Part shown: positions 6,036-52,175 of the stretch, piece after piece
How positions within the stretch are numbered: position 1 is the stretch's first letter
Layout: every line of letters begins with the position of its first letter
Assembly (NCBI GenBank): GCA_040006435.1
Contig: JBDTWZ010000001.1
Location: forward strand, 1-53,580
Origin: Acidobacteriota bacterium
Lineage (GTDB): Bacteria > Acidobacteriota > Blastocatellia > Pyrinomonadales > Pyrinomonadaceae
Direction: 5' to 3'
Length of the DNA stretch: 53,580 nucleotides
Program-made: the position numbers and the translations under genes
Notes under the pieces: generated by a model
Databases searched by the model: none
What the model saw: the letters and a program-made list of their open reading frames with translations, nothing else
What the model was told of the DNA's origin: nothing

Positions 6036-7346
6036 TTACTCGAAGGCCTCCAAATATTTCACGCCAGAACCGGTGTTGAATAGCACGACAGTTTCACCAT
6101 CTTTAACCTCGGCTCGATCGATCAGTGTTAGTAAGGCGGGCAGGCACGCAGCACCCTCGGGAGCGGCAAAAACACCTTCGGTCGCACCGATCTCGCCGAC
6201 GGCTTTCACTAATTCTTCATCGCTCACAGCAATCGCGGTTCCACCCGATGCTCGGATAGCATCTAGGATCAAAAAATCGCCGATGGCTTTTGGAACTCGA
6301 AGGCCGGACGCGACGGTCGAAGCATTCTCGAATTCGTCAGCAAATCTGTCTCCTTTCTCGAACGCCCGCACTATCGGAGCGCAAGTTGCCGATTGGACCG
6401 TTACCATTCTTGGACGGCGCGAATCGATCCAGCCCATCTGCTCCATCTCGTCGAACGCTTTCCACATTCCGATCAAGCCGGTGCCGCCGCCGGTGGGATA
6501 AATGATCACGTCGGGTAAGTAGCGGGCTCTCTGATCGGGCACCACCCCGTCATCCGCTTCGCGGATGCCACCCCTCCTTAAACCAGGAGGGGAGCTATGT
6601 GCCAAACTCCCCTCCTGGTTTAAGGAGGGGTGGCCGAGGCTTTGCGAGGCCGGGGTGGTGCTGTAAGCGCCAAACTGTTCGAAGAGCTCATACCCCATCG
6701 TCTTCTTGCCTTCGACACGATACGGCTCTTTCAGCGTAGATACGTCAAACCAGCCTTCGGCCTCTTTTCTCTCGGCGACTATCTTTCCGCAATCCGTGAT
6801 CAAGCCGTCGACGAGAGTGACGTGCGCTCCCGTCTGCTCGCATTCGACGATGTTCGCTCGCGGAGTGTCGGATGGCATAAAGATAAATGCTTCCATTCCG
6901 GCTCGTGCGGCATACGCTGCCATCGCTCCCGCGGCGTTCCCCGCCGAAGGGACGGCGACCTTTTTCACGCCTAGCTCCTTTGCCATCGAGATCGCGGCCG
7001 TCATGCCGCGGGCTTTGAAGCTCTGCGTCGGGTTCTGGCCCTCGTCCTTGATGAACAGGTTTAGTTTGATCGGCAGTTTTTCCGCAAGTCGGCCGGCTTT
7101 TAGAAGCGGTGTCCAGCCTTCGCCAAAACTAATAATGTTGTCGGGGTTTTCAACCGGCAACACTTCGCGGTATCGCCACAATGACGATTCCCTCGACGCG
7201 AGTGCATCCGGCGTTATTGTCGCCGCAGCTTTTTCGAGGTCATATCGAACGAGCAGCGGCTTGCCGCATTCGACGCAGAGATTCTGCAGTTTATTCGCTT
7301 CGTGCCGCAGTCCGCAGAGCGCGCATTCGAGGTGTGTGACGTTCAT
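6036..7346 (-). CDS. thrC: threonine synthase carrying a 41-codon in-frame repeat insertion
   Basis: N-terminal Cys4 ribbon (CALCG...CVECG), PLP lysine motif TQSFKARG and glycine loop YPTGGGTGLIG. Start set at ATG 7346 (MNVTHLE), which removes the overlap with the upstream gene. Confidence 0.9.
   Translation of the reverse strand: MNVTHLECALCGLRHEANKLQNLCVECGKPLLVRYDLEKAAATITPDALASRESSLWRYREVLPVENPDNIISFGEGWTPLLKAGRLAEKLPIKLNLFIKDEGQNPTQSFKARGMTAAISMAKELGVKKVAVPSAGNAAGAMAAYAARAGMEAFIFMPSDTPRANIVECEQTGAHVTLVDGLITDCGKIVAERKEAEGWFDVSTLKEPYRVEGKKTMGYELFEQFGAYSTTPASQSLGHPSLNQEGSLAHSSPPGLRRGGIREADDGVVPDQRARYLPDVIIYPTGGGTGLIGMWKAFDEMEQMGWIDSRRPRMVTVQSATCAPIVRAFEKGDRFADEFENASTVASGLRVPKAIGDFLILDAIRASGGTAIAVSDEELVKAVGEIGATEGVFAAPEGAACLPALLTLIDRAEVKDGETVVLFNTGSGVKYLEAFE
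6539..6661. repeat. 123-bp nested palindromic element inside thrC
   Basis: Outer 11-bp inverted repeat GCACCACCCCG/CGGGGTGGTGC (6539-6549, 6651-6661). Inner perfect 27-bp inverted repeat (6568-6594, 6607-6633) with a 12-nt loop. Each inner arm contains its own 8-bp hairpin CCCCTCCT-TAAACC-AGGAGGGG. Confidence 0.9.
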
Positions 7347-7383
7347 AGACCGAATCAATATAGCTCGAGCAGCGAGCTCCGGG

Positions 7384-8064
7384 TCACTTCTTCCAAACAA
7401 ATTCTTTGAACAAATTGAAGGCGGCATTAAAGCCGAGTGAGAGGGTACCGCTTCGAACGCCATCTTTCCAATCGTATCGATCCGGGTACCACGTTTCGTA
7501 GGCGATGATGCTCGACGTGAATGTTCCGGCTAAGTTCGGGACGCCGATGACACGCTTACCATACCTATCACGCGCCGTGACGGGCGAGATGAGTACGTTC
7601 CGGATGCGGGCGGACACGCTTTTTTTCCGACTGCGATAGAAATGACTGTCCAATTTCATCGCTTCGTCGAGACCAAACTTCGTAGTTTGTTTGATCGCAT
7701 TCTTACCAAAGTTGGATGCGACGCGGCGCCCAAAACCTTCCCATTTCGTTCCCCACTCTGCCGGCGAATTACGCCAGGTAGAAATTCCCGCGGTCGCGAT
7801 CATTCTTCCAAGAGCGAACGGCCCAACGGTGCTGTTGATGAACCGCTTTTGGCGCGTAGCAGCGGTAGGTCGAACATAGTCAGTAGACGGCTTCACCGTG
7901 AATAGCCCGGGCTGAACCGTCGACCTTTGGAGTTCTTTATTCTGGTCTTTATCCGCAAGGTCGGTTGCGGTCGTTGGATCTGGTGTCGGCGTCGGTGTGG
8001 GGTCCTGCGCTAGTGTGACAGACGTCGCGAACAGAAGAGTCATTAGCAAAAAGTGCGGTTTCAT
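7384..8064 (-). CDS. hypothetical secreted protein
   Basis: Signal peptide MKPHFLLMTLLFATSVTLAQ followed by a PTPTPTPDP linker. No recognisable catalytic motif. Confidence 0.6.
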   Translation of the reverse strand: MKPHFLLMTLLFATSVTLAQDPTPTPTPDPTTATDLADKDQNKELQRSTVQPGLFTVKPSTDYVRPTAATRQKRFINSTVGPFALGRMIATAGISTWRNSPAEWGTKWEGFGRRVASNFGKNAIKQTTKFGLDEAMKLDSHFYRSRKKSVSARIRNVLISPVTARDRYGKRVIGVPNLAGTFTSSIIAYETWYPDRYDWKDGVRSGTLSLGFNAAFNLFKEFVWKK

Positions 8065-8092
8065 GAAATCCCTCCCTTGATTGATAGTCTAT

Positions 8093-8791
8093 CTAAGAGC
8101 TCTTTAGCATCGGCTTCAGCTCTTTATAAATATTCACCATCATGATCTTCGTACCCTCGGCGTTCGGGTGGATGCCATCGGCTTGATTCAATTCTCTCTT
8201 GAGCGCGATGTTCTCCAAAAGGAACGGCAGGTATGCGACCTTGTGCGTCGTCGCGAGATCTGGGAAAGCGTTCGAGTATTCCCTCTGGTAATCCGCGCCC
8301 ATCGTCGGCGGCGCGAGCATTCCGCACAAGAGCACAGCGACATTTTTCGCCTTCGCTTTGCGAATGATCCTATCGAGATTCGTTCTCATCTTCGCAACCG
8401 GAACACCCCGAAGCAGATCGTTTGCACCGAGCTCAAGAACAATGATCTGAACATTCTCCTGTTCGAGAATCCAATCGGCGCGCTCGAGACCGCCAAGGCT
8501 CGTGTCGCCTGAGACACCTGCATTCACAACCTCATAATTGTATCCGTCGGCATTCAAGCGTTCCTGCAAAAGATAGGGGTATGACTCGCGTTCGGTGAGG
8601 CCAAACCCCGCGGTCAGGCTGTCGCCGAACGCGACGATCTTTGGCCGATTCGCCGTCACCTCCGGCGTCTTCAAAGGTTTGTTTGATCCAACGCCGATCT
8701 CGGACGGACGCCCACCCGAGGAACACGCGGCCGCCAGTGACCAGAGAAATATGAAACTTAGAAATGCTGTGTTTCGAATAATATGATTCAT
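8093..8791 (-). CDS. tesA: SGNH/GDSL hydrolase, TesA-like arylesterase/thioesterase
   Basis: Blocks FGDSLTAG, GANDLL and DGIHPN, plus a signal peptide. It is divergent from an ABC ATPase and FtsX permease pair, as in the E. coli tesA-ybbA-ybbP arrangement. Confidence 0.8.
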   Translation of the reverse strand: MNHIIRNTAFLSFIFLWSLAAACSSGGRPSEIGVGSNKPLKTPEVTANRPKIVAFGDSLTAGFGLTERESYPYLLQERLNADGYNYEVVNAGVSGDTSLGGLERADWILEQENVQIIVLELGANDLLRGVPVAKMRTNLDRIIRKAKAKNVAVLLCGMLAPPTMGADYQREYSNAFPDLATTHKVAYLPFLLENIALKRELNQADGIHPNAEGTKIMMVNIYKELKPMLKSS

Positions 8792-8843
8792 GTGAAACTA
8801 AATAATATGCTACGCGATTTAGTAAGCTTTGGATGCAGATTCT

Positions 8844-8937
8844 TTGAGGTGTGAGGTATGAAGTATAAGCGGTGAACTAAAAAGAGCCCGGTCAAAGGTT
8901 CTTTCATCATTCACCATGCATACTTCACACTTCACCG
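8844..8937 (+). repeat. heptamer-periodic GTGA/TCAC hairpin element (copy 1), ending 6 nt before the ybbA ATG
   Basis: Left arm GAGGTGT GAGGTAT GAAGTAT AAGCGGT, core CCGGTCAAA, right arm TTCATCA TTCACCA TGCATAC TTCACAC TTCACCG. The arms are partly complementary (GTGTGAGGTATG against CATACTTCACAC). Confidence 0.65.
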
Positions 8938-8943
8938 TTTTTT

Positions 8944-9609
8944 ATGATCCAACTGAACTCAGTCACAAAAACCGTCCGCTCGGGGACGGAAAATCTCACT
9001 ATCTTGTCCGACGTTTCGCTCGACATTCCCGGAGGGCAGTTTGTCGCATTGACCGGGGCGTCCGGCAGCGGCAAATCGACTCTGCTCGGTTTGATCGCCG
9101 GTCTGGATGCACCAAGTTCCGGAACGATCCTGATCGACGGTGACGACATAACAAGTATAAGCGAGGACGGTCTGGCAGAGATCCGAAGCGCAAAGATCGG
9201 GTTCGTATTCCAGTCGTTTCATCTGATCCCCAGTCTTACGGCGCTGGAGAACGTTCTTATTCCAATGGAGATCAGGGGGCTCAGCGACGCCGGTGATCGG
9301 GCGTCCGAGCTTTTGCGAGATGTTGACCTGACCGATCGGGGCCATCATTATCCGGCGGAGCTTTCGGGCGGCGAGCAACAGCGTGTCGCGATAGCTCGTG
9401 CATTTGCGAACCGGCCAAAGATCCTTCTCGCGGACGAACCGACCGGTAATCTCGATTCGAAAAACGGCCGGCACATTTTTGAGTTAATGACCCAGCTTCA
9501 TACGGAGCGGGCCGTGACACTTGTTCTCGTAACGCACGATCACGGGTTGGCGGCTGAGGCACAGCGTCAGATCGTTTTGAAAGACGGACGGGTGATTAGC
9601 GATGAGTGA
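8944..9609 (+). CDS. ybbA: ABC transporter ATP-binding protein (LolD/YbbA-like)
   Basis: Walker [10 protein letters not shown], signature LSGGEQQR, Walker [10 protein letters not shown]. Symbol assigned by synteny with tesA and the FtsX permease. Confidence 0.85.
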
Positions 9610-9690
9610 CGAGGTATGAGCGTCGTCGCGAGAATCGCCGCCGGTCAAACTCTTTTCACTTTTCACTTTTCACTCGTCACTCATCACTCG
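9599..9690 (+). repeat. heptamer-periodic GTGA/TCAC hairpin element (copy 2), spanning the ybbA stop and ending 7 nt before the ybbP ATG
   Basis: Perfect 13-bp inverted repeat GATGAGTGACGAG (9601-9613) / CTCGTCACTCATC (9673-9685). Core CCGGTCAAA. Tandem 7-mers ACTTTTC ACTTTTC ACTCGTC ACTCATC ACTCG (9658-9690). Confidence 0.8.
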
Positions 9691-12223: not shown

Positions 12224-12225
12224 CG

Positions 12226-14374: not shown

Positions 14375-14451
14375 CGGGGCGTAGCACAGCCTGGTAGTGC
14401 GCACGGTTTGGGACCGTGAGGCCGCAAGTTCGAATCTTGCCGCCCCGACCA
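14375..14451 (+). tRNA. tRNA-Pro (anticodon TGG)
   Basis: Manual cloverleaf. Acceptor CGGGGCG/CGCCCCG, D stem GCAC/GTGC, anticodon stem CACGG/CCGTG with loop TTTGGGA, T arm GCAAG-TTCGAAT-CTTGC, discriminator A and encoded CCA. 77 nt. Confidence 0.93.
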
Positions 14452-15530: not shown

Positions 15531-17408
15531 CTATTCCGCTCGAAGGATTAGTTTGTAGATCGTGTACATGCCCACGACCTCGCCGCCATCCCGTACGTAC
15601 CATTTATCGAGATTGCTGAGATCGGTGTCCGCATCGTTCCTTACCACGGCGTAGGACAGCATGGGGTTTGCGGCGTTGACGGCGTTGAATGCGGACCTAT
15701 AGGCGGCGTAGCGCTCGACCTCAGAGTCGATCTCACCATAGGTCAGCGGCGTTGCTTCGCTGCTCAGACGATCGGTGTGTCTTCCCCAACCAAAGAGCGC
15801 GATCTTCGTGACGAAGTCATTTTTCAAAAGATAATCCAGAACCTCTTCATCGACATTTGAGTAATAAAGATATTGAAAGTAACGGTCCTTATTTTCCTGC
15901 CAGGACATCCCGGCAAATACATGCTGATGACGCGACCACAGAACGTTCTGCGGCGCGATGCTCGGCAAATCGTCCGACTGGATCATGTCGTACGCCAGCA
16001 CGGTGGAGCGATACGGATCGACATCCTCTAGTGACAACTCTTCGAGTCGTTTCGCGACTGGCAGCGCAATATCGCGCTCGACGTTCGCACCGTCCAGGAC
16101 GCGCACCGTGTAATGGCACTCGACAAATCCCCAGAGGATCGCGACGATGGCAAGCGATGCGCAGGCTAGTTTCGCCCGGGCACTTTCTATACTCAACCAT
16201 TGGCGAAGCAAAACTCCGATGGTCACGATCAGAGCGAGTGCCGCAACATAATTCCCGATGAACACCTGATAATGGATCGGCTGCAGCGAACGTCCAGTGA
16301 CGATCTGCTGATTGAAGATAATAAAAGGAACAAGAGCCAGCGAGAGTGCGAATAGAGTCGACCTGTCGCCCGGAGCGATCATCCTTTTCGTGACGCCGAC
16401 AGCAAGCAACAGCAGACATATCAAGCTTACATATTCGGGCATCCGCCACAGGTCCGGCACCCGCGTGTAAACCAAGAGTTGGACGTCGTCCATCGTCTCG
16501 GACCGTTTCGAAAGCAGCCAGGCGTACGGAATGACGGCGAGTGCACAGCCGACCCCGACGGCGATAAGGTTCTTTATATCCCGCCCAAAACTTTCCGGCC
16601 GAAATACAAGCCAGACAACGAAAAGACATCCGAGCCAGGCGGCCGCAGTCGTCCAGATGTAGAAATAAGAGAAGACGGTGTAGGCGAAGAGAAAGATCGC
16701 GGCGGTGAGAAATAAATAGCGCTGGAGAGCGGAACCGGTAGCGACCGGTTTTCCCGGTGATGGATCGATCGCCTTGACGGGCGACCCGGTCGCTACCGCT
16801 CCCGGTTCTGACTTCCGTTCTTCAACAAGGCGCCAGACCACCGCAAACAAACCGAACACTGCGGCCATTGCCATCGCCGGAATATATCGGCGAAATCCGG
16901 GAAAGTACGGATAAGAGAATCCATCGAAGAATATCTCGGGCATCGCACCTTCGCCCGCGGCCAGGGCTCCGCCTGCGAATACGACAAGCGAACCGGCCAT
17001 TCCGAACCAACTGCTCCCGGTGATCCGCGCGATCAGCCAAAACGCAGCAAGCGCCGCCAGAAAGCCCGCGGCGGCTCCGGACAAGGTCATCGCCCACGGC
17101 GTTCCGACACCAAGGATCCGCGCAGGGATCGCGATCGAGTATGGCGCGGCGAATTGGATGGAAAAAAGTGATTCGGGCTGCGGCGTCAAAGGCGATTCGT
17201 CGCGACCCGAATAAGGATCATTCTTCCGCGGACGGCCGTCGATCAACGCACGAACGTAAGAGGCATAAGCAACTTCGTCGATGTCGTTGTATGCGTAGTG
17301 CCCGTTCCACTCCGACCCGCGCAGATAGAACATGTTCAACTGCGGGTAGAGGCAAAAAATTGCAAGGAATACAGCGGCGACAATGCCGAAGCGCCAGCGA
17401 AGCTTCAT
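15531..17408 (-). CDS. large polytopic membrane protein of unknown function carrying an in-frame palindromic repeat
   Basis: 625 aa with at least 10 hydrophobic segments and a soluble C-terminal domain. No catalytic motif recognised. Confidence 0.75.
   Translation of the reverse strand: MKLRWRFGIVAAVFLAIFCLYPQLNMFYLRGSEWNGHYAYNDIDEVAYASYVRALIDGRPRKNDPYSGRDESPLTPQPESLFSIQFAAPYSIAIPARILGVGTPWAMTLSGAAAGFLAALAAFWLIARITGSSWFGMAGSLVVFAGGALAAGEGAMPEIFFDGFSYPYFPGFRRYIPAMAMAAVFGLFAVVWRLVEERKSEPGAVATGSPVKAIDPSPGKPVATGSALQRYLFLTAAIFLFAYTVFSYFYIWTTAAAWLGCLFVVWLVFRPESFGRDIKNLIAVGVGCALAVIPYAWLLSKRSETMDDVQLLVYTRVPDLWRMPEYVSLICLLLLAVGVTKRMIAPGDRSTLFALSLALVPFIIFNQQIVTGRSLQPIHYQVFIGNYVAALALIVTIGVLLRQWLSIESARAKLACASLAIVAILWGFVECHYTVRVLDGANVERDIALPVAKRLEELSLEDVDPYRSTVLAYDMIQSDDLPSIAPQNVLWSRHQHVFAGMSWQENKDRYFQYLYYSNVDEEVLDYLLKNDFVTKIALFGWGRHTDRLSSEATPLTYGEIDSEVERYAAYRSAFNAVNAANPMLSYAVVRNDADTDLSNLDKWYVRDGGEVVGMYTIYKLILRAE
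16729..16812. repeat. palindromic GTAGCGACC-type element inside the membrane-protein gene
   Basis: Perfect 12-bp inverted repeat GGTAGCGACCGG (16737-16748) / CCGGTCGCTACC (16786-16797) around an ATCGAT centre. The right half (16778-16812) is 33/35 identical to 20597-20631. Confidence 0.85.
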
Positions 17409-17470: not shown

Positions 17471-18181
17471 ATGAAAACTTATTTCGCGTCCTGTCGTCTG
17501 GTGGCGCTCGTAGGGTGTCTGACCATAGTTCTGTGCCTCGGACTGGATCTCAAGACACACGCGCAGGATACGGAACCTAGACTTCTATCACAGCCGGGAT
17601 TTGTTCTGTCGGAAAAAGCCGTTGCAGCCGGCATCGACGGTGTATTCAACGTATCCCTCTCGATAGACAAGACTGGTAAGGTGAAAACGGTAACTCTTCA
17701 TGGCGGTCCCGCGTGGCCATGCAACACCTCACCATGGTCCGAGATCGAATCGGTACGTGACGCAGTGAAAAAACATCTCATGTCGATAGTCTTCGCACCT
17801 GCGACAAAGAACGGAAAACCGTATGACGTGGATGTAAGGCTGGACTTTGCTATCGGCGAAGCGTATAAGCGTGCGGTAGCGATCGAAGAGGCTGAAAAGG
17901 CTGCCGCCGCGGGAAAGCTGATCGTCGTCAAAGCCGGAGTGGTCAATGGAAAAGCGATTCGCTTAACGAAACCTCGGTACGCGGGCATTCGGGGCGTGGT
18001 GACGATTCAGGTTTTGATAGATGAAAGGGGGAACATTGCGAACGCAGGGGGAATGAGCGGGCATCCATTTCTAGTAAAGAGCGCTCGTGAAGCCGCTTGC
18101 GAATCTAAGTTTTCACCCACGATCATAGAAGGCAAGCCGGTTAAAGTTACCGGGATTATCACGTACAACTATGTTCCTTAG
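17471..18181 (+). CDS. secreted protein with two TonB-C-like domains
   Basis: Signal peptide. The C-terminal module GIRGVVTIQVLIDERGNI...GHPFL..SAREAA..SKF.P....GKPVKV matches the TonB C-terminal fold signature. An N-terminal degenerate copy is present. Confidence 0.7.
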   Translation: MKTYFASCRLVALVGCLTIVLCLGLDLKTHAQDTEPRLLSQPGFVLSEKAVAAGIDGVFNVSLSIDKTGKVKTVTLHGGPAWPCNTSPWSEIESVRDAVKKHLMSIVFAPATKNGKPYDVDVRLDFAIGEAYKRAVAIEEAEKAAAAGKLIVVKAGVVNGKAIRLTKPRYAGIRGVVTIQVLIDERGNIANAGGMSGHPFLVKSAREAACESKFSPTIIEGKPVKVTGIITYNYVP

Positions 18182-18255
18182 CAGCTTGTTCTAAGCTTGG
18201 AAACTTAGGTCGTCGCCGCTAACATTCGTTCCACCATCTAATAGGGAGAGATACT

Positions 18256-18840
18256 ATGAAACTCGGACTACTCTGCCTGCTGCTGTTGTTACCCTCCTTT
18301 GCTTTCTCGGGCGAGATCGAGGAACAAAACAAAGCTCTCGCACGTCGCTTCTACGAAGAAGTATGGTTCAAAAACAATCCTGCGGCGGTCGATGAAAGCT
18401 TCGCGCCGACCTACATCGCCCACGACATCGGAGATCGCAAGAACTCGATGGAGCCGGCGGACGAGCAGAAGAAGATCGCCCAGTTCTTTTGGGACCGCGG
18501 ATCGATGACCGGTACGATCGATTACCAGATCGCCGAGGGCGATCTGGTCGCGACGCGCTGGCAGTGGTATTTCAAACCGAACGTCTGGTGGATGAAGCTG
18601 CTCGGCGGCAGCGAGCAGCACATCCCGATCATAAACGTCATGCGCATTCGCGATGGCAAGATAGTCGAGATCTGGAACCACCGACACGACATCGACACGA
18701 TGCAGGCGAACTTCATTTTTGTGAAAGGGTTGGTCGCGGGGCTGATTCCATCTATCATACTTCTGGTTTTGATGTTCTTGATGTGGCGAAGATCACGGAG
18801 GAATAGGATTTTGAGTCCGCGTCCGACGCGAGAAGCTTGA
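18256..18840 (+). CDS. SnoaL-like (ester cyclase-type) protein with C-terminal membrane anchor
   Basis: Signal peptide, NKALARRFYEEVW motif typical of SnoaL-like folds, and a C-terminal hydrophobic helix LVAGLIPSIILLVLMFLMW. Confidence 0.6.
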   Translation: MKLGLLCLLLLLPSFAFSGEIEEQNKALARRFYEEVWFKNNPAAVDESFAPTYIAHDIGDRKNSMEPADEQKKIAQFFWDRGSMTGTIDYQIAEGDLVATRWQWYFKPNVWWMKLLGGSEQHIPIINVMRIRDGKIVEIWNHRHDIDTMQANFIFVKGLVAGLIPSIILLVLMFLMWRRSRRNRILSPRPTREA

Positions 18841-18843
18841 TAT

Positions 18844-19649: not shown

Positions 19650-21545
19650 GTGAAACCGACAAACATTAACGATCCCGAATATTTTCATAAGGTGGTGGAT
19701 TGCCAGTACGCATGTCCGGCCCACACACCGGTGCCGGAGTACATTCGCCTCATCGCCGAGGGAAAGTACACCGAGGCGTACATGATCAACTGGGACTCGA
19801 ATGTATTTCCCGGAATCCTCGGGCGTACATGCGATCGCCCGTGCGAACCGGCATGCCGGCGCGGCCGCATTGACGAAGAGCCGGTTGCGATCTGTCGTCT
19901 GAAGCGCGTTGCCGCGGATAATAAAGACGATGTCAAACATTTGATGCCGCAGGCGCCGTTCAAGCCGAACGGAAAAAAGGTGGCGCTGATCGGCGCCGGT
20001 CCTGCTTCCCTGACGGTCGCACGCGATCTGGCACCGCTCGGCTACGAGATCCATCTGTTCGACGAACAGTACAAGGGCGGCGGGTTTATGCTCAGCCAGA
20101 TCCCCGCGTTTCGTCTGCCCGAAACGGTGCTCGACGAAGAGGTAAACTACATTCTCGACCTCGGCATTCACACACACTTCAAACATTACGTCTCGTCGCT
20201 GAAAGAAGTCCTAGAGCAGGATTACGACGCCGTGTTTGTCGGCACGGGCGCACCGCGCGGACGCGAACTGAAGATCCCCGGCCGTGAAGAAGGCGCGGCG
20301 AACATTCACATCGGCATTAACTGGCTCGGCAGCGTCGCATTCGAACACACGAGCAAGATCGGCAAGAACGTCATCGTGCTCGGCGGCGGCAACACCGCGA
20401 TGGACTGCTGCCGCACCGCGCGCCGTGTCGGCGGCGAAGACGTCAAGGTCATCGTCCGCTCGCCGTTCGCCGAGATGAAGGCATCGCCGTGGGAAAAAGA
20501 AGACGCACAGCACGAGGACATCCCGATCATCGACAACCACGTACCGAAGTCATTCGTGATCGAATACGACGAAGATAACGACGCCGGGACGGATCTGTCA
20601 GAACCGCGAGCGGTAGCGACCGGGTCACCCGGTGGGAGTTCGACGCCTAAGGGCCGTCTCAAGGGCGTCATGTTCGAAAAGGTAGAAGCGAAGTACGACG
20701 CCGCCGGCAAACGTTCGCTCGTCCCGACCGGCGAGCCCGACGTGTTCTTCCCCGCCGACGATGTTCTCGTCGCAATTGGTCAGGAAAACTCGTTCCCCTG
20801 GATCGAGCGCAACATCGGTCTCGATTTCGACAAGTGGGAGATGCCGATCGTCGACAAGACGACATTTCAATCGACGCATCCGAAAGTTTTCTTCGGCGGC
20901 GACGCGGCGTTCGGTCCCGAGAATGTCATCACCGCCGTCGCTCACGGACACCAGGCGGCCGTCTCGATAGATCTGCTTTGCAACAAAAAGAATCTGCTGA
21001 CCGAGCGACTTCACCCGATGGTCAATCTCGTCTCGCAAAAGATGGGTATCCACGAATGGGCATACGACAGCGAGATCGACGAATACGACCGACTCGTCGT
21101 CCCGCAGGCGCCGAAAACAAAGACGCTCGTCAATCGAAAACAGGAAGTCGAGATGGGATTCGACCGGCTCGCCGGATTCAAGGAAGCGGAACGGTGCTTG
21201 AACTGCGATGTTCAGACCGTCTTCGACGCACCGAAATGCATCGAGTGCGACGCCTGCGTCGACATCTGCCCGACAGCCTGCATCACCTTCACCGCGAACG
21301 GCGACGAAGAAGATCTTCGCTCGCGAACAAAAGTTCCCGCCCTCACTCTCACACAGGACCTCTACGTCTCTGAGCCGCTTATCCAAACCAAACGGATCAT
21401 GGTCAAGGACGAAGACGTGTGCCTCCATTGCGGCCTCTGCGCCGAACGCTGCCCGACCGCCGCCTGGGACATGCAAAAATTCTGGTACGACGTGACGAAG
21501 GCCGGCGAGGTCAAGTACGGGTGTAATGGAAATGGTGGGGGGTAA
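19650..21545 (+). CDS. GltD-like FAD/NAD(P)-dependent oxidoreductase fused to a 2x[4Fe-4S] ferredoxin domain, with an in-frame repeat insertion
   Basis: N-terminal Fe-S segment CQYACPAHTP...CDRPCEPAC, dinucleotide folds VALIGAGPASL and VIVLGGGNTAMD, C-terminal CLNCD...CIECDACVDICP and CLHCGLCAERCP. GTG start after GGAGA. Confidence 0.85.
   Translation: MKPTNINDPEYFHKVVDCQYACPAHTPVPEYIRLIAEGKYTEAYMINWDSNVFPGILGRTCDRPCEPACRRGRIDEEPVAICRLKRVAADNKDDVKHLMPQAPFKPNGKKVALIGAGPASLTVARDLAPLGYEIHLFDEQYKGGGFMLSQIPAFRLPETVLDEEVNYILDLGIHTHFKHYVSSLKEVLEQDYDAVFVGTGAPRGRELKIPGREEGAANIHIGINWLGSVAFEHTSKIGKNVIVLGGGNTAMDCCRTARRVGGEDVKVIVRSPFAEMKASPWEKEDAQHEDIPIIDNHVPKSFVIEYDEDNDAGTDLSEPRAVATGSPGGSSTPKGRLKGVMFEKVEAKYDAAGKRSLVPTGEPDVFFPADDVLVAIGQENSFPWIERNIGLDFDKWEMPIVDKTTFQSTHPKVFFGGDAAFGPENVITAVAHGHQAAVSIDLLCNKKNLLTERLHPMVNLVSQKMGIHEWAYDSEIDEYDRLVVPQAPKTKTLVNRKQEVEMGFDRLAGFKEAERCLNCDVQTVFDAPKCIECDACVDICPTACITFTANGDEEDLRSRTKVPALTLTQDLYVSEPLIQTKRIMVKDEDVCLHCGLCAERCPTAAWDMQKFWYDVTKAGEVKYGCNGNGGG
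20597..20660 (+). repeat. GTAGCGACC-type repeat inside the GltD-like gene
   Basis: GTCAGAACCGCGAGCGGTAGCGACCGGGTCACCCG (20597-20631) matches the reverse complement of 16778-16812 at 33/35. It is followed by GACGCCTAAGGGCCGTC, which resembles the REP hairpin core. Confidence 0.8.
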
Positions 21546-22168: not shown

Positions 22169-22183
22169 TCTTAGCGATTGTCG

Positions 22184-22501
22184 CGGAGCGACCACATGCA
22201 TTTAGCCGTGGCCTTAAGGCCACGGCTTCCGACGACCCGTTCCTGCCGCATCAGCGGTAGTTGGTTCAATTGCCGCTAACGCGGCAAGAATTACTTGCAT
22301 CCTCCAACCGTGGCCTGAAGGCCACGGCTAAAGGCGTCTGCCCGCTACGCGGTCAGCTCGCCGGATCGAGGGTCGAGGCGACGCGGTCGGGTCGAGGCAA
22401 GGTGGGCGAGGCAAGGTCGTCGCGTAGCGACCGCATGCATTTAGCCGTGGCCTTAAGGCCACGGTTTTCCGACGACCCCGTTCCTGCCGCGTCAGCGGTA
22501 G
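22184..22501. repeat. cluster of three REP units (alternating orientation, BIME-like)
   Basis: Units of about 80 nt. Each has a GTAG-containing head (CGCGTAGCGACC), hairpin core GCCGTGGCC-loop-GGCCACGGC (cores at 22205-22226, 22308-27, 22444-64) and a second small hairpin CTGCCGC-NTCA-GCGGTAG. The middle unit is inverted. Confidence 0.9.
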
Positions 22502-22507
22502 GTGAAA

Positions 22508-22960: not shown

Positions 22961-22978
22961 CGTCGTAGATTCCGTTCA

Positions 22979-23050
22979 TCTACCGCTGAGGCGGCAATGT
23001 GACCGTGGCCTAAAGGGCCACGGCTAAATGCGTGCGGCCGCTACGCGGCT
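22979..23050. repeat. REP unit (inverted relative to 22419-22501)
   Basis: CTACCGCTGAGGCGGCA...CCGTGGCCTAAAGGGCCACGGCTAAATGCGTGCGGCCGCTACGCGG. This is the reverse complement of the REP consensus, including the GTAG head. Confidence 0.9.
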
Positions 23051-23273
23051 GCTACCACATTTCGAGTTTGGTCCGCGGCCATCTTAGAAAGGCATCGACA
23101 AACTCGTCTTTAATTTTTCTGAATTGTTCCGAAATGCATCAGCATCCGCACGCCGAGCGACATCGCCGGTCATCCATTCAGGTCACGAAAGCTCGCACGG
23201 ACAGATGCATGTAGGGGGTAATCGGCTCCCGCGCTTGGTTCCAAGGGCACTTTCGGTTAATCCTACGTAGAGC

Positions 23274-31426: not shown

Positions 31427-31528
31427 GTGTCTATTATAGACGATGCACGATCGAACTCTTTTTATTCCCTGAGACTTCTCTTATAATAGCCCGTCGAACG
31501 TATCGATCATCCCTGTTATGACTTGTTT

Positions 31529-33499
31529 ATGAAGATCAACGACTTTGTAGTCCGCTTTGCGAATGTGAACGGTACCGGTTCGGCATCGGCCAACGCACTG
31601 TTTACAAAGGCAGTGTTTCGCATGGGCGTGCCGGTGACGCCGAAGAATATCTTTCCGTCGAATATCCAGGGGCTGCCGACGTGGTACGAGGTGCGTATTT
31701 CGGAAGGCGGACATCTCGGCCGCCGCGAGGGCGTCGATCTGATGATCGCGGTCAATCCGCAGTCGATGAAAAAGGATTACGCCGATGTTCGCGAGGGCGG
31801 CTATTTTCTTTACGACTCCTCGAAGCCCCTCGCACCCGGTTACGATCGGACCGACATCACCCATATCGGCATCCCGCTGATGACTCTCTGCAATGCAGAG
31901 TTTACCGACGCACGCCAGCGCCAGCTTTTCAAGAACATCGTCTATATCGGAGCCCTTGTCGCTCTGTTCGGGATCGAGTTTGAAATGCTCGAGCAGCTCG
32001 TCGGCGAACAGTTCCGCGGTAAGGAAAAATTGATCGAGCCTAACATCCGGGCGCTCAACATCGGGGTGAAATACACGCGGGAGAATTTCGAATGTCCGTT
32101 AGACATACGCGTCGAACGCCGCGACCTGCTCGGCGATAAAGTTCTTTACAGCGGCAATTCGGCGTGCGCACTCGGTGCGATCTATGCCGGAGCAACCGTC
32201 GCCGCGTGGTATCCGATCACACCTTCAACATCGGTCGTCGATGCGTTTGCCAAGTATGCCGCTAAGTACCGCGTCGACGCCGAGACGGGTATGAACAACT
32301 ACGCGATCGTGCAGGCCGAGGACGAACTCGCGGCGATCGGAATGGTAATGGGCGCGTGCTGGAACGGCGCACGTGCGTTCACCGCGACGAGCGGCCCGGG
32401 CATCTCTCTGATGAACGAGTTCCTCGGCCTCGGCTATTTTGCCGAGGTGCCGACGGTGCTAATAGACGTACAACGAACCGGCCCATCCACCGGCATGCCG
32501 ACGCGGACACAGCAATCCGACATTTTGCTCGCGGCGTATGCGTCGCACGGCGATACAAAACATCCGCTGTTGTTCCCAGCCTCGCCGAAGGAATGTTTCG
32601 AGATGACGGCCGACGCCTTCGATCTGACCGAGCGTCTTCAGACGCCGGTCATCGTCATGACGGATCTCGATCTCGGGATGAACGATCACATCACCGAGCC
32701 TCTTGTTTGGGATGACGCCCGTAAATTTGACCGCGGCAAGGTCCTTACAGCCAGACATCTTGAACGCCTCGGCGGTGCGGCACTGGCTGATATCGTCGAG
32801 GGGATGGAGAACGAAACCGACGGCGACGCGTTCGCGGGCAGCGCCATTGAACAGTTTCGCGGTAAATTTGGCCGCTATCTTGACATCGACGACGACGGTA
32901 TTCCGTACCGCACAGTTCCCGGCGTTCATCCGACGCGCGGGGCATATGTCACACGCGGCTCATCGCGTGACGAGTACGCAGTCTACACCGAGGACGGCGA
33001 CGTCTATCGTCGCAACATGGACCGCCTCGCCCGCAAGTGGGACACGGCGAAGGAGCTGGTGCCGCAGCCGGAATTTTATGGCGACGCGGGGACGGGGCGA
33101 CACGGAGAAGGGGAGAAAGGGAGAAAGGGAGAGGGGCCGACCTCTGACTCGTCACTCGTCACTCGTCCCTCATCACTAAAAAATGACGCCGTCATTTTTT
33201 TCGGAACCTCCACATACGCAGCGATCGAGGCATTGGAGCTATTAGCCGATGAGGGAATCCGACTCGACGCGATGCGAGCCCGTGGATTCCCTTTTGGAAA
33301 GTCGTTTCGTGATTTCATCGACTCACACGACCGCGTCTTCGTCATCGAACAAAACCGCGATGCGCAGTTTCGCAGCCTGATGATGATCGAATTAGGAGTC
33401 GACGCATCAAAGCTTGTTTCGGTCCTAAACTACGACGGGATGCCGATCACGGCGGACAACATCTTCATACAGATTAATTCATTTTCTCAGGACCAATGA
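31529..33499 (+). CDS. korA: 2-oxoacid:ferredoxin oxidoreductase, fused gamma-alpha subunit, with an in-frame repeat insertion
   Basis: N-terminal gamma-like VNGTGSASANALF...PSNIQGLPTWYEVR, and alpha domain with TGPSTGMPTRTQQSD. ATG 31529 preferred over TTG 31523. No beta-subunit gene follows. Confidence 0.85.
   Translation: MKINDFVVRFANVNGTGSASANALFTKAVFRMGVPVTPKNIFPSNIQGLPTWYEVRISEGGHLGRREGVDLMIAVNPQSMKKDYADVREGGYFLYDSSKPLAPGYDRTDITHIGIPLMTLCNAEFTDARQRQLFKNIVYIGALVALFGIEFEMLEQLVGEQFRGKEKLIEPNIRALNIGVKYTRENFECPLDIRVERRDLLGDKVLYSGNSACALGAIYAGATVAAWYPITPSTSVVDAFAKYAAKYRVDAETGMNNYAIVQAEDELAAIGMVMGACWNGARAFTATSGPGISLMNEFLGLGYFAEVPTVLIDVQRTGPSTGMPTRTQQSDILLAAYASHGDTKHPLLFPASPKECFEMTADAFDLTERLQTPVIVMTDLDLGMNDHITEPLVWDDARKFDRGKVLTARHLERLGGAALADIVEGMENETDGDAFAGSAIEQFRGKFGRYLDIDDDGIPYRTVPGVHPTRGAYVTRGSSRDEYAVYTEDGDVYRRNMDRLARKWDTAKELVPQPEFYGDAGTGRHGEGEKGRKGEGPTSDSSLVTRPSSLKNDAVIFFGTSTYAAIEALELLADEGIRLDAMRARGFPFGKSFRDFIDSHDRVFVIEQNRDAQFRSLMMIELGVDASKLVSVLNYDGMPITADNIFIQINSFSQDQ
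33104..33200 (+). repeat. composite periodic repeat inside korA (purine octamers, ACTCGTC heptamers, 11-bp palindrome)
   Basis: GGAGAAGG GGAGAAAG GGAGAAAG GGAGAGGG (33104-33135). ACTCGTC x3 plus CCTCATC ACT (33147-33177), shared with 9672-9688. AAAAAATGACG-C-CGTCATTTTTT (33178-33200). Confidence 0.8.
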
Positions 33500-44303: not shown

Positions 44304-44876
44304 CTATTTCCGTAGCTTCCGCATCGTTATCGTCGTTAGCGGTTTCTTATTCGACATAATTCGACTGTACGCGACCCAATAACCCGCCGCCCGATAACGA
44401 ATCAACTTATAAATGCCGCCGTCCTTTTTCGTCACCACCTTTACATCGGGGCCGAAGATGTCCTCAAATTTCGGAACGTCCGCATCTCCATTTGAATAGC
44501 TCAGAGCTACGGTGCGAACCTTTCCCCGCGCATCGAGTCCGATCTGTGCGGACTCGTTCTCCGAGAACAAATAGTACATTCCGGTTTCGTCTCCCGAATC
44601 GGGCTTTCCAAGCTTGTCCTTTACTTCGTCGCTCGTCATTCCAAGCGAGATGCCTTTCAGCTCCGTTACAAAAGGAGTCAACGGGGTCGGTGTCGGCATC
44701 GGTGTCGGCTTCGGTGTCGCCATCGGCGTCGGTGCTGGCGTCGCGGTCGGCGTCGGCTTAGACATCGTATCCTGGCCGAACGCCGTCGTCCCGATGATAA
44801 GTAATGTAGCCGCAAGTAATGCCGCTCTGGCTGTAAAGCTTGAAATTATTTTCCTGAAATCCTGTTTCTCTCTCAT
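44304..44876 (-). CDS. exported protein with Pro/Thr linker and BamE/SmpA-like domain
   Basis: Signal-anchor, TPTATPAPTPMATPKPTPMPTPTP linker, and a GMTSDEVKDKLGKPD motif. Confidence 0.65.
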   Translation of the reverse strand: MREKQDFRKIISSFTARAALLAATLLIIGTTAFGQDTMSKPTPTATPAPTPMATPKPTPMPTPTPLTPFVTELKGISLGMTSDEVKDKLGKPDSGDETGMYYLFSENESAQIGLDARGKVRTVALSYSNGDADVPKFEDIFGPDVKVVTKKDGGIYKLIRYRAAGYWVAYSRIMSNKKPLTTITMRKLRK

Positions 44877-45063
44877 AGAATTATCCTCTTCCGCTTACCT
44901 AAGCCCTATAGATCCGGTTCTCGGAAACGCCTACTGGTTCGCAACGACATGTGGAGATAGGATACACCGTAATCCGTCATGGCGTGATGCAAACGACTCC
45001 GTCACGACCGCAAAGCTCTCCAAAACAACGTTCCGCACTTCCATCAAAATATTGAATGTTACA

Positions 45064-46308
45064 ATGTCAGCGAACATGCCCAAACACGTCGGCATCGCAT
45101 TTGTCACGGGACGCAAGCACTTTCAAAATGTGCTTCGCTCGTATGTCAACAACTGGCTCGAACATGGCTTGATCGACGATAAGAGCGTCCGCTTACATCT
45201 TTTCGTCGTTTACGACGTTAGTTATTCCAACACTGAACCAAGCGACTACAAGAACATTCCCGCGGAATTGAGGGAGATGGTCGAGTCGATCAATTTTTAC
45301 GGCCGCGAGGCTTTGGACGATGAGCGCCGGACGTTGATCCACGAAGGAGTTATCGACGACGCGGAAGGCGATCTTCTCTTCGGCGAAGGTTACGCGAAAA
45401 AGAGAAATGCGGCTCTTTATTTCGCGAGCAAGAACGGGATGGACCGTCTTCTATTCATCGACGATGACGAGTATCCGATAGCGGTCTTAAGAAACAAGGC
45501 AAACAATCTAATCTGGATGGGTCAAAGCATCCTCGGCCCACATCTGAAATTCGGCGAGAACGCCGACATTACCCACGGTCATCACTGCGGATACATTTCG
45601 CCGATACCCCGCTTAGAGTTCAACCGTACCCTTACCGAAAACGATTTCCGCGACTTCATCGATGCGACCAGCAACGACATCGTCACGTGGGCGAAGGTCA
45701 AGGAAACGATTATCGGCAACAACGGCGTGACCTATGCCGATGGAGAAATTATCGATCGACAAATAACGTCCGAGGTTCTCGAGACGACGGGGATGAAGTT
45801 CATTTCCGGTGCGAATCTTTGCTTTAATCTCAAGCGGCTTCATAGCCTTCCGGTTTTCTACAATCCGCCCGGAGCCCGCGGCGAAGACGCGTTCATGAGT
45901 ACGACGCTTACCGATCACAAGGTCGTAAAAGTTCCCTGCTACACATTTCACGACGCGTTTCTGGAGTACAAAAATATTTTGAATGGAGTGCTGCCCGTCG
46001 AACTTAGCGGCGTCGACGCTCACTCGCCGGCGGTTCGCCAGCGATTCATACGAGCGGCAATAGGATGGATTCGTTATAAGCCGCTGCTTACGTTAATAAC
46101 TCAACCGGAAAAGTACGATTCGATAATCGAAGAAATGACGCGAAAGCTGGACTCCGCAATTCCGAAGCTCTGCAGGTATTTCGATACCCCGCAGTTTGAA
46201 GGTGTTCAGACCGAAATGCGGCGATACCATCGCAACGTACGTCGGCATCATCGCACCTTCGAAGCCACTCGCACAGCATGGGCCAAGGTTACAAAAGCGC
46301 TACTTTAG
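45064..46308 (+). CDS. GT-A-like (DxD) protein of unknown specificity
   Basis: LFIDDDEYP (DxD-like) and ARGEDAF motifs. Start set to ATG 45064, because the upstream part of the ORF is antisense to the preceding gene. AT-richer than its surroundings. Confidence 0.6.
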   Translation: MSANMPKHVGIAFVTGRKHFQNVLRSYVNNWLEHGLIDDKSVRLHLFVVYDVSYSNTEPSDYKNIPAELREMVESINFYGREALDDERRTLIHEGVIDDAEGDLLFGEGYAKKRNAALYFASKNGMDRLLFIDDDEYPIAVLRNKANNLIWMGQSILGPHLKFGENADITHGHHCGYISPIPRLEFNRTLTENDFRDFIDATSNDIVTWAKVKETIIGNNGVTYADGEIIDRQITSEVLETTGMKFISGANLCFNLKRLHSLPVFYNPPGARGEDAFMSTTLTDHKVVKVPCYTFHDAFLEYKNILNGVLPVELSGVDAHSPAVRQRFIRAAIGWIRYKPLLTLITQPEKYDSIIEEMTRKLDSAIPKLCRYFDTPQFEGVQTEMRRYHRNVRRHHRTFEATRTAWAKVTKALL

Positions 46309-49039: not shown

Positions 49040-49088
49040 GGTCGATCTAAGATTCAAACGCCGACGAATCCCTGGCGTTCATTCCCGC

Positions 49089-50929: not shown

Positions 50930-51012
50930 CAATGAGTGGTCGGTCGCGGCCAACAAAGATGCGGCAGTTGATCTCCGAGGCCAAGTGCCCGGGGAGCCAC
51001 GGCTACCGGCTG

Positions 51013-51207
51013 TTTAAATTGCCCCAACCTTTAGGTCGGGGTCACATGAGCGCTAAGCTCCGGCTTTAGCCGAAATATAAACAAAGCTTCCTTTTTGGCT
51101 ATAGGCGAATTCAGCTAAAGCTAAAGGGATTTTTTTTTCGATCGCATTCGGCTAAAGCCGGGTTCCGGACTCTTCTTACCCCGACCTAAAGGTCGGGGCA
51201 ATTTAAA
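51013..51207. mobile_element. 195-bp MITE-like palindromic element
   Basis: 30-bp terminal inverted repeats TTTAAATTGCCCCAACCTTTAGGTCGGGGT / ACCCCGACCTAAAGGTCGGGGCAATTTAAA (1 mismatch). Internal inverted repeat CCGGCTTTAGCCGAA (51060-74) / TTCGGCTAAAGCCGG (51147-61). No ORF. Confidence 0.8.
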
Positions 51208-51274
51208 TGATCCGGGGAAGGTTCTAATCTTGGAATCTGGGCGCCTTCCCCGCCTCGGCGGTAAGAGCCTCAAC

Positions 51275-51937
51275 CTAATCCAACACACCCAACTCATCAA
51301 GCGCTGTGAGCAGCTCCGACGGATCGCGATAGACGCGATAAGCGCCGGCGCTCGTTAATTCATCCTCGCCATAGCCGCCACTCAGAAGCCCGACGCTGAG
51401 CATCCCGGCACGACGCGCCGCGAGGATGTCCCAGACCGCATCGCCGACGACATAACAATCGAGAGGCGATGCGCCCAGGCGCTGCTGACACGCCAGAAAA
51501 AGATCCGGCGCCGGTTTCGCTCGAACGACGATGCCGCGATCGACGACTACGACATCGTCCCCGACACCGAGCGCCTCGAGCGACTTATCGATCTCCGGTC
51601 TTCTGCCGGAAGTCGCGATGCCGTACGTCACACCGTTCTGTTTCAAAAACTGAAGAAGCTCGACCGCACCGGGCAGCGGCCTCCGCGTCGGAGCAAGCTC
51701 TGTAAAGATCTCTCCATGTCGCCGCTGCAATGATTCCGTCTCGTCTTGTGTGAGCTTACGTTCAAGCTCGCGTGCAACGGCACGTGCAAACAACCCGCCG
51801 CTCATCCCGATCCGCCGGTGTATCCGCCATCCGTCGATCGCCATCCCAGCCTCTTCAAACGCCCGCTGCCACGAGAAAACGTGAGCATAAACCGTATCGA
51901 TCAATGTCCCGTCGAGATCGAAAATAAGTGCGTGCAT
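51275..51937 (-). CDS. HAD-superfamily hydrolase (phosphoglycolate phosphatase / beta-phosphoglucomutase-like)
   Basis: Motif I FDLDGTLIDT, motif II ATSG, motif III/IV VGDAVWD. Confidence 0.85.
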   Translation of the reverse strand: MHALIFDLDGTLIDTVYAHVFSWQRAFEEAGMAIDGWRIHRRIGMSGGLFARAVARELERKLTQDETESLQRRHGEIFTELAPTRRPLPGAVELLQFLKQNGVTYGIATSGRRPEIDKSLEALGVGDDVVVVDRGIVVRAKPAPDLFLACQQRLGASPLDCYVVGDAVWDILAARRAGMLSVGLLSGGYGEDELTSAGAYRVYRDPSELLTALDELGVLD

Positions 51938-52003
51938 GAATGAAGTTTAGCAGACGCGTACCCGCAAATCGGCGAGATGCCGACAAGGCACGCCGCGTCG
52001 GGC

Positions 52004-52175
52004 CGCGTAGCGGCCGCTCGCATTTAGCCGTGGCCTTCAGGCCACGGATGAAGGTCAACAAATCTTGCCGCGTCAGCGGCAATTGAGAATTCGTGCGGTC
52101 GCTACGCGACGCAATTGATTTTTCCGACTACCCGTGGCCTAAGGGCCACGGCTAAACTCGATTGACCGCGACGGG
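52004..52175. repeat. REP doublet of the same family as at 22.2-23.0 kb
   Basis: CCGCGTAGCGGCCGCTCGCATTTAGCCGTGGCCTTCAGGCCACGG...CTTGCCGCGTCAGCGGCAA, then an inverted, partly rearranged unit with core CCGTGGCCTAAGGGCCACGGCTAAA (52132-52155). Confidence 0.85.

Follow-up and report, generated by a model that had tools for sequence, protein, structure and literature searches.

How do copies of dispersed, structured DNA repeats come to lie within the reading frames of conserved enzymes, and what becomes of them there? This question is raised by a contig of 53,580 nt (hereinafter the window, which covers the whole contig) from a metagenome-assembled genome (MAG) of Pyrinomonadaceae (Acidobacteriota, Blastocatellia), the group to whose MAGs the best protein matches of the window also belong. 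The window is ~89% coding and contains ~48 genes, four of which carry 27-48 extra codons of repeat DNA, namely thrC, which encodes threonine synthase, a gene for a GltD/NfnB-like FAD and Fe-S oxidoreductase, a korA-like gene for the alpha subunit of a 2-oxoacid:ferredoxin oxidoreductase, and a gene for a multi-pass membrane protein. Comparison of all four hosts with their homologs confirms this count, which was proposed in the initial annotation of the sequence, and places the inserts at loops that many orthologs keep short. A motif scan of all window proteins gave chance matches only and revealed no fifth host. The accompanying claim of at least four palindromic or periodic families in these hosts holds in so far as the repeats are real, with pattern counts above those in shuffled controls, which excludes chance; however, two of the hosts share one family, and the korA insert is periodic rather than palindromic.

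We propose that dispersed hairpin repeats insert or are copied into new sites, that selection retains those genic copies that lie in frame within loops, and that the contents of the occupied loops turn over; taken as a whole, this is the explanation that we consider probable. It builds on what can be seen directly in the present analysis, that is, the inserts and the families to which they belong, the relatives that lack them or carry other repeats instead, the reuse of the same loops and the predicted disorder. The ortholog sets used throughout comprise the 120 best database matches per enzyme, mostly from MAGs and 75-96% identical to the window protein.

In-frame repeats in four host genes

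The database protein for ThrC consists of 436 amino acids (aa) and starts with MNVTHLE, and the mechanical open reading frame (ORF) extends to position 7463. Residues 266-315 of this ORF lack a counterpart in the solved threonine synthases, the alignment running to residue 265 and resuming at residue 316. Chain positions 178 and 180 of the A. aeolicus structure are adjacent at this site, so that ~50 residues are extra in the window protein; the loop is 13 aa long in its minimal form, 'ELAEQLDWTLPDV', and 61 aa long in the window. The underlying DNA is a nested palindrome of 41 codons, with outer arms GCACCACCCCG/CGGGGTGGTGC and inner arms (6567-6594 and 6607-6634) that are complementary at 28 of 28 positions, each being a hairpin in its own right (CCCCTCCT-loop-AGGAGGGG); there are also two small internal modules, a clear hairpin being formed only by CATCCGC...GCGGATG. 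As single-stranded DNA, the palindrome folds with -57.6 kcal/mol compared to -23.0 +/- 3.1 kcal/mol for shuffles (z = -11.3; here and below, z-scores compare the DNA folding energy with that of shuffled sequence). In the orientation of the palindrome, the frame that is used is the only one of three that is free of stops, and its translation, TTPASQSLGHPSLNQEGSLAHSSPPGLRRGGIREADDGVV, includes the stretch SSPPGLRRGG. In the AlphaFold2 model obtained with the 120 orthologs (predicted template modeling score, pTM, 0.80), which is confident outside the insert, residues 231-273 have a predicted local distance difference test (pLDDT) score of ~33 and no secondary structure, between a helix (210-229) and a strand (280-284). 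The model thus predicts a disordered surface excursion that is compatible with the fold.

The family of the thrC palindrome is dispersed in soil metagenomes. Its exact 22-mer core was found on nine metagenome contigs within the same modular architecture (CACCACCCCG, small hairpin, CCCCTCC hairpin, in this order), both in single units and in complete inverted doublets, for the most part away from long ORFs. The small hairpin has a stem that varies among the copies yet stays paired (CAGCCG/CGGCTG, CAGCGG/CCGCTG and CATCCGC/GCGGATG), these compensatory changes being read directly from the sequences with no formal count. RNAalifold, applied to ten half-units, recovered only the invariant big hairpin, the small one being misaligned. 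Loops of ThrC, the oxidoreductase and KorA in other lineages also contain the translated half-unit (SSPPxxxGGVxxASADGVV). The ends of the thrC element show no evident direct repeat, the empty-site genome being too diverged to place the junctions.

The membrane protein and the oxidoreductase share a different family, a repetitive extragenic palindromic (REP) unit tagged with GTAG. In the membrane protein, an inverted doublet with arms at 16730-16756 and 16778-16804 adds ~27 residues to an inter-helix loop that measures 4-6 aa in 14 distant homologs. The oxidoreductase turn 'VIEDGKLKGVMF', 12 aa long when empty, reaches 40 aa in the window, where the translated insert, LSEPRAVATGSP, includes the stretch AVATGSPGGSSTPK; at the DNA level, an empty site is seen in the ortholog P0223 (GAGAACGGAAAGCTA) and simple filled sites in P0204 and P0239. 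The segments 16778-16812 and 20597-20631 are complementary at 33 of 35 nt (94%), a match that by our estimate is expected ~1e-8 times in 53.6 kb, and on the coding strands represent one unit, GTCAGAACCG(G/C)GAGCGGTAGCGACCGGGT, which is read in the same frame in both hosts (SEPGAVATGSP in the membrane protein and SEPRAVATGSP in the oxidoreductase). In the window copies as well as in P0204 and P0239, the unit has the structure GAACCGG-GAGCGGTAGCGA-CCGGGTTC, a short imperfect palindrome able to form a stem-loop. The GTAG tag is invariant in the three window copies and in the pattern matches, and sits in the loop or 5' of the second small stem, not at the end of the unit.

A scan of GTDB species genomes for CGGTAGCGACCGGKT yielded at least 119 loci. 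About half of the 80 labelled loci among the matches listed (~40 loci) come from Pyrinomonadaceae, Blastocatellia or other Acidobacteriota; many of these, again among the matches listed, are paired in plus/minus orientation at a distance of 45-100 nt, and the majority fall outside long ORFs. Isolated matches in unrelated taxa are taken as chance, given that by our estimate a 15-mer is expected ~2000 times in 596 Gb. In-frame copies were found elsewhere in the genes for ArgRS, ThiC, a GH92 glycosidase, a radical-SAM/DUF512 protein, a type ISP restriction enzyme, a histidine kinase and an FAD-linked oxidase, in at least three frames or orientations (AVATG, GSGSDRV and PVATAPG); those of the respective MAGs that are labelled are Acidobacteriota, the ArgRS and histidine kinase loci lying outside the labelled set.

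The korA insert consists of two arrays, a purine octamer (GGAGAAAG)x3.6 at 33104-33132 and a heptamer (ACTCGTC)x4.4 at 33147-33177, within a loop (PEFY...GVIFFGTS) that has 20 aa in the shortest orthologs and 48 aa in the window. No hairpin was detected in this insert (z = 0.04), and the arrays resemble products of slippage no less than insertions. The insert is also present in the closest relative, the KorA of which is 96% identical, with a concerted change of the heptamer, CACTCGT x3 in the window and CACTCAT x4, in every unit, in the relative; the peptide changes from SSLVTRPSSL to SSLITHHSSP, four residues being altered. In other lineages, the same KorA loop holds full hairpins with complementary heptamer-array arms (e.g., VTSDE...SSLVT). 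Moreover, the korA heptamer array is 81% identical to the intergenic array at 9658-9689, which belongs to one of two hairpins with heptamer-array arms next to ybbA (8845-8935 and 9598-9690). Both hairpins are found in the relative with their position, architecture and small core (CCGGTCA) kept and with different arm units, the two arms changing together so that complementarity is retained (GTGACGA/TCGTCAC in the window, GTGAGAA/TTCTCAC in the relative, for the latter hairpin). Hairpins with co-varying heptamer or octamer array arms may represent an undescribed class of structured repeat.

KorA also has a second hypervariable loop, DRGKVLT...FRGKF (window ~32730-32860), which in some lineages contains translated repeats (SSPPYEGGVPEGRGGS; ARTLLSP...GDKSVPAP) and in the window is a short form of 47 aa with no recognizable repeat.

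Reuse and turnover of the occupied loops

Across the ortholog sets, the loop is minimal in 51 of the 120 oxidoreductases (the 12-aa turn), 19 of the 120 ThrC proteins (12-13 aa) and 10 of the 120 KorA proteins (~20 aa), and the longest segments, including flanks, span 89 aa, 61 aa (the window protein itself) and 64 aa, respectively. Fitch parsimony on neighbor-joining trees built with the loop masked gives, in the same order, at least 16, 12 and 8 presence/absence changes, and 54-69 class changes on the same trees, all these counts being rough owing to the biased sample, the crude trees and possible recombination. The 69 filled oxidoreductases display at least 12 classes of translated repeats, with two or three classes in tandem in some loops, and more than 10 translated repeat families occupy the same ThrC, oxidoreductase and KorA loops across other Pyrinomonadaceae. 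Classes common to all three enzymes include AVATG/GSGSDRV, SSPPxxGGV...ADGVV, NPxSxIxN, DTPV...DKSV, VPPSGG and others. Furthermore, the same loops are repeat-bearing in hundreds of independent assemblies (NCBI, JGI, ENA and Logan). At the level of predicted proteins, this distribution shows that the loop content was gained or replaced many times independently across the Pyrinomonadaceae.

The closest relative, GCA_041745575.1, provides ~51 kb of syntenic sequence with ~90% nucleotide identity and 33 ortholog pairs, among which large coding differences are found only at the thrC, membrane-protein and oxidoreductase loops. These three loops contain repeats in both genomes, from different families, which indicates replacement rather than plain gain or loss. 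The ThrC protein of this relative, the closest ortholog, encoded within the same gene order as in the window, has in place of the palindrome a short AATCCAAA-type array, translated as 'RGIQNPKSRIQN', and the loop of the membrane protein holds an (AATGCGG)4...(CCGCATT)n hairpin. Thus, the polymorphism among close relatives that the initial annotation proposed to look for is there, a different repeat being present at three of the four loops. The broader suggestion made there, of an active process extending beyond the window as opposed to a local coincidence, also finds support, given that more than 10 families occupy the same loops with many presence/absence changes, a pattern suggestive of an ongoing and lineage-wide process. 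The same applies to the idea that inserts survive only where length and frame keep the host ORF open: the dispersed families are mostly intergenic elsewhere, which fits survival only where frame and protein structure allow.

With respect to gene content, a block of TonB_C, SnoaL-like and TonB_C genes that lies between the membrane protein and oxidoreductase genes (17471-19548) is missing from the syntenic region of the relative, and the Ser/Thr protein kinase gene at 35990-37087 has at the same position there only a 133-aa ORF with 47% identity.

Host genes, inserts and repeat elements of the window, with the evidence for each
Feature	Coordinates	Strand	Evidence and details
thrC (threonine synthase), host	6036..7346	minus	Pfam PALP in two stretches; NCBIfam threonine synthase, 575 bits; PDB threonine synthases align on either side of the insert
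123-nt (41-codon) in-frame nested palindrome in thrC	6539..6661	minus	Fold, arm search, ortholog comparison
Intergenic hairpin with heptamer-array arms	8845..8935		GAGGTAT/GAAGTAT...TTCACCA/TTCACAC; between GDSL lipase gene and ybbA; z = -3.9
Hairpin with heptamer-array arms	9598..9690		Overlaps 3' end of ybbA; GATGAGTGACGAG...(CACTTTT)3 CACTCGT CACTCAT; z = -4.3
Multi-pass membrane protein, host	15531..17408	minus	No Pfam or NCBIfam match; 585 homologs in representative library
In-frame inverted doublet of GTAG-tagged REP in membrane protein	16722..16812	minus	Unit GTCAGAACCGGGAGCGGTAGCGACCGGGT; translation SEPGAVATGSPVKAIDPSPGKPVATGSALQ; z = -4.2
GltD/NfnB-like FAD and Fe-S oxidoreductase, host	19650..21545	plus	Pfam Fer4_20, Pyr_redox_2, Fer4_7; PDB relatives NfnA, NfnI and GltD small chain
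31-codon in-frame insert in oxidoreductase	20562..20654	plus	In place of three-residue beta-turn; one GTAG-REP unit at 20597-20631
U repeat cluster	22180..22504		Direct copies 22180-22263 and 22419-22504; inverted partial copy 22301-22352; z = -6.5
Y1 (HUH) transposase, 150 aa	22508..22960	minus	Pfam Y1_Tnp; NCBIfam IS200/IS605 transposase, 71 bits (cut-off 55); best PDB match IS608 TnpA
Inverted U repeat, other side of transposase gene	23004..23051	minus	Repeat search
korA-like (2-oxoacid:ferredoxin oxidoreductase alpha subunit), host	31523..33499	plus	Pfam POR, POR_N; NCBIfam OAFO_sf, 544 bits; PDB 6n2n
36-codon in-frame periodic insert in korA	33080..33187	plus	Translation GDAGTGRHGEGEKGRKGEGPTSDSSLVTRPSSLKND
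195-nt MITE-like element	51013..51207		38-nt terminal inverted repeats, 89% complementary; inner inverted repeat 51060-51074/51147-51161
Full U element and inverted partial copy	52002..52176		52003-52111 and 52132-52176; downstream of HAD hydrolase gene; z = -6.9

The Y1 transposase and the intergenic elements

The only Y1 transposase gene in the window is bracketed by inverted units of a repeat denoted U, at 22419-22504 (plus strand) and 23004-23051 (minus strand). The initial annotation considered a mechanism of the RAYT (REP-associated tyrosine transposase) type, which this enzyme does not bear out: its sole NCBIfam match is the IS200/IS605 equivalog, E. coli RayT is absent from its PDB matches at E <= 0.01 (these being IS608, ISDra2 and Sulfolobus TnpA), and the flanking U repeats differ from the genic ones. 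To judge from these profile and PDB matches, it is an IS200/IS605-like TnpA that falls outside the RAYT clade. The core hairpin of U, CCGTGGCC-TTAA-GGCCACGG, is preceded by GCGTAGCGACCGC, and the U pattern is matched 5 times in the window compared to 0.02 expected. The full element (52003-52111) is a nested palindrome with outer arms GCGTAGCGGCCGC/GCGGTCGCTACGC around two hairpins, and the inverted doublets at 22180-22352 and 52003-52176 have 82-84 nt between their arms. Within the window, the U core CCGTGGCCNNNNGGCCACGG is found at intergenic sites only, with none inside genes; the genic repeats belong to other families, the sole shared piece being the short GTAGCGACCG motif.

Each of the 38-nt terminal inverted repeats (TIRs) of the 195-nt element holds a CCCCGACC-TTTA-GGTCGGGG hairpin. 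With such repeats, a length between 70 and 300 nt and no coding capacity, this element resembles a MITE (a miniature inverted-repeat transposable element); the arms of the 123-nt thrC element are nested. The 195-nt element has no evident direct repeat at its ends, and no insertion sequence with matching ends was found in the window. G+C stems with TTAA or TTTA loops nested within longer arms, the common design pointed out in the initial annotation, are visible in the thrC element, the transposase-adjacent U repeats and the 195-nt element. Among the intergenic repeats reported there to flank other genes, those at ybbA, the transposase and the HAD gene are upheld; the one next to the aminotransferase gene folds no better than shuffled sequence (z = -0.7) and was rejected.

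In the relative, the Y1 transposase, the U repeats and the adjacent FMO-like gene (window 22419-24704) sit elsewhere, between a methyltransferase gene and korA, which points to a local rearrangement around the transposase; the relative also carries a second Y1_Tnp gene, coding for 165 aa.

Origin of the inserts and parallels with known systems

Under the explanation that we favor, the genome would contain several families of short (~35-195 nt), G+C-rich, hairpin-forming dispersed repeats: the GTAG-tagged REP, often in inverted doublets; the CACCACCCCG-hairpin-CCCCTCC...GGAGGGG unit, single or as the 123-nt inverted doublet; the U element associated with the Y1 transposase; the 195-nt MITE-like element; and hairpins or arrays of heptamer or octamer tandem units. 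Copies would spread to new sites, most of them settling or persisting between genes, and a copy within a gene would be kept only if its length is divisible by 3, the frame in use is stop-free, and the site is a surface loop, a turn or an inter-helix linker. The retained copy would be translated as a disordered excursion, and the occupied loop would keep changing, with other families replacing or joining the first repeat and tandem units expanding and homogenizing by slippage. For the GTAG-type units, the likeliest route would be single-strand transposition by HUH/Y1 enzymes, RAYT- or IS200-like, which we regard as possible more than probable; the link to RAYT-type chemistry comes from the GTAG tag, by analogy with the described REPs (PMC3733652), and the tag is present only in two of the hosts.

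Several observations weigh against this explanation. The sequences analyzed revealed neither a transposition intermediate nor a target-site signature or donor copy, and the genomes with empty and with filled sites are too diverged for the exact junctions to be placed. The window transposase, IS200/IS605-like and not RayT-like, is flanked by a repeat unlike the genic ones, and no enzyme could be linked in this analysis to the thrC-type palindrome or the heptamer arrays. Moreover, the REP copy in the oxidoreductase is degenerate and has no significant fold on its own (z = -0.5), the korA insert, which forms no hairpin, could have arisen in place, the event counts are rough for the reasons given above, and translation of the inserts is presumed from their open frames.

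As an alternative, the repeats might be spread mainly by homologous recombination or gene conversion between copies, combined with hairpin-templated repair, instead of by a transposase, with the occupied loops acting as recombination hotspots. Such a process would account for the replacement, as opposed to gain or loss, of the content of three occupied loops between two close genomes, for the joint change of both arms in orthologous intergenic hairpins, and for the composite arrays of two or three families in one loop (e.g., P0137, P0139, oxidoreductase). However, conversion cannot place an initial copy in a turn that is still empty, yet on the tree empty orthologs are mixed with filled ones, and the empty site shows no evident homology in its flanks; we consider this possibility doubtful. 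Growth of low-complexity linkers in place, by replication slippage and local duplication, would fit the korA insert, with its two tandem arrays, no hairpin, and units that change in concert between two genomes, and heptameric simple repeats are enriched in some bacteria (PMC4692102). As an account of the inserts in general, it appears unlikely given that one 35-nt REP is found in two unrelated genes, that unrelated contigs carry members of the family of the 123-nt palindrome, that the korA heptamer array matches the intergenic array at 9658-9689, and that identical peptide classes occur in three unrelated enzymes.

Still less probable, in our view, is that the inserts are kept because they are useful, be it as flexible or interaction loops or as mRNA or DNA hairpins that tune expression. 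Conservation of the korA insert between two genomes is compatible with such a role, and the small stem of the thrC family stays paired despite change, so that the fold may matter at the nucleic-acid level; nevertheless, the loop content is unrelated between lineages, many orthologs have none, the insert is predicted to be disordered, and the same units are mostly intergenic. The strong thrC hairpin would hinder translation, which might speak for inserts that are excised from the RNA or skipped by the ribosome, but this is highly improbable considering that all four inserts and all those in the ortholog sets are open-framed with lengths divisible by 3, which excision would not need, and that Pfam and Rfam searches found no intron, intein or Rfam family matching the inserts. 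The most improbable explanation is an assembly or binning artefact, i.e., repeat reads misjoined into genes: although the contig is metagenome-assembled and short-read assemblies are prone to errors at repeats, the inserts keep the frame and contain no stops, the same loops bear repeats in hundreds of independent assemblies, and an independent genome has the korA insert as well. Inteins, introns and artefact were rejected on size, open reading frame and reproducibility.

Insertion or copying of dispersed repeats followed by selection for in-frame loop copies is a phenomenon that is already known in kind; what is new is the lineage and the repeat families, the extent to which sites are reused, and the arrays with co-changing arms. 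The Rickettsia palindromic elements (RPEs; Ogata et al.) are in-frame palindromic inserts in Rickettsia genes (PMC10969869, PMC3733652). Like RPEs, the elements described here include palindromes of ~100-150 nt from several families that lie in frame in unrelated metabolic or housekeeping genes, with other copies being intergenic; in thrC, the membrane protein, the oxidoreductase and further hosts elsewhere, they probably add peptide segments that are compatible with the fold, homologs without the insert being available. The predicted surface placement is RPE-like as well (a disordered loop in ThrC, a turn in the oxidoreductase, and an inter-helix loop in the membrane protein). Unlike the RPEs, these repeats occur in a free-living soil acidobacterium and not in a reduced intracellular genome, more than 10 peptide classes reuse the same loops across the family with turnover between close genomes, and some inserts are tandem heptamer or octamer arrays. 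This comparison concerns behavior; a sequence relation is not expected given the different phylum and G+C content.

The GTAG/CGTC REPs (Di Nocera et al. 2013) are found as singles and inverted dimers, mostly between genes, with a minority in ORFs where they encode 20-30 aa; the intragenic copies have been suggested to sit in flexible linkers, and in recB, two Xanthomonas species carry different REPs at approximately the same position (PMC3733652). The family described here resembles them in being a short GTAG stem-loop that occurs as singles and inverted dimers, mostly in intergenic regions, and differs in that GTAG lies inside the loop of the unit and not at its 5' end, in being common to many Pyrinomonadaceae and Blastocatellia genomes, and in the much larger scale of site reuse. 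The Y1 gene bracketed by inverted repeat copies, with the repeat also present in dispersed inverted doublets, recalls REPIN-RAYT (PMC3116915) and 'TIRYT' (PMC3733652) systems, TIR-flanked tyrosine transposases having been described for an acidobacterium (PMC3733652). In contrast to REPIN-RAYT, the enzyme is an IS200/IS605 TnpA equivalog, and the flanking repeats are not the genic ones; the U units, nested palindromes of ~85-110 nt, are closer to the 'TIRYT' of Koribacter (PMC3733652). Finally, MITEs can make in-frame fusions, such as the Coxiella QMITEs (PMC5896051; reviewed in PMC10969869), which are likewise small, non-coding inverted-repeat elements that add residues to proteins; unlike the QMITEs, which are mostly located at gene ends or in hypothetical proteins, the present inserts are internal, in conserved enzymes, with no evident target-site duplication.

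Tandem 7-nt units make up the cyanobacterial short tandemly repeated repetitive (STRR) sequences, which are abundant in certain lineages. The heptamer arrays described here share such units with these sequences and with heptameric simple sequence repeats, and differ from them in that they form the arms of hairpins, change together, and are also translated, as far as open frames tell, within genes. No reports of such repeats in Acidobacteria or Blastocatellia were found in the searchable literature.

In-frame palindromic inserts have so far been discussed mainly for Rickettsia and a few REP-rich genomes, and their origin and the tolerance of proteins to them are unsettled. The same behavior is now seen on a larger scale in abundant free-living soil Acidobacteria, and public metagenomes provide hundreds of natural ortholog pairs with and without an insert, which can be used to address which sites tolerate 10-90 disordered residues, whether targeting or a selection filter determines the occupied sites, and which enzyme moves each family. 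In practical terms, the inserts inflate protein families, break them up and can cause errors in alignment, annotation and structure prediction in the Acidobacteriota, and intergenic copies create spurious 'hypothetical proteins'. A more speculative possibility, which we put forward jointly with the undescribed class of array-arm hairpins, is that a few enzyme loops, once occupied, serve as landing pads that preferentially take further repeats, through repeat-into-repeat insertion or hairpin-templated conversion; if true, these loops would represent a natural, fast-turnover 'insertion scan' of housekeeping proteins.

As for the rest of the window, the sole match in an Rfam scan is tRNA-Pro(TGG) at 14375-14451, the single tRNA gene, with no described RNA family over any repeat. 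A strong hairpin with 18-bp arms (1830-1884; z = -4.8) between the convergent PGI-like and radical-SAM genes resembles a bidirectional terminator, with no relation to the repeat families. A tandem repeat with periods of 6, 12 and 24 nt (TCGGTGTCGGCA) occupies the segment 44682-44757; the plus-strand ORF that covers it (44614-46308; GVGVGIGVG...) has no Pfam match, and the opposite strand would encode a Pro/Thr-rich linker.

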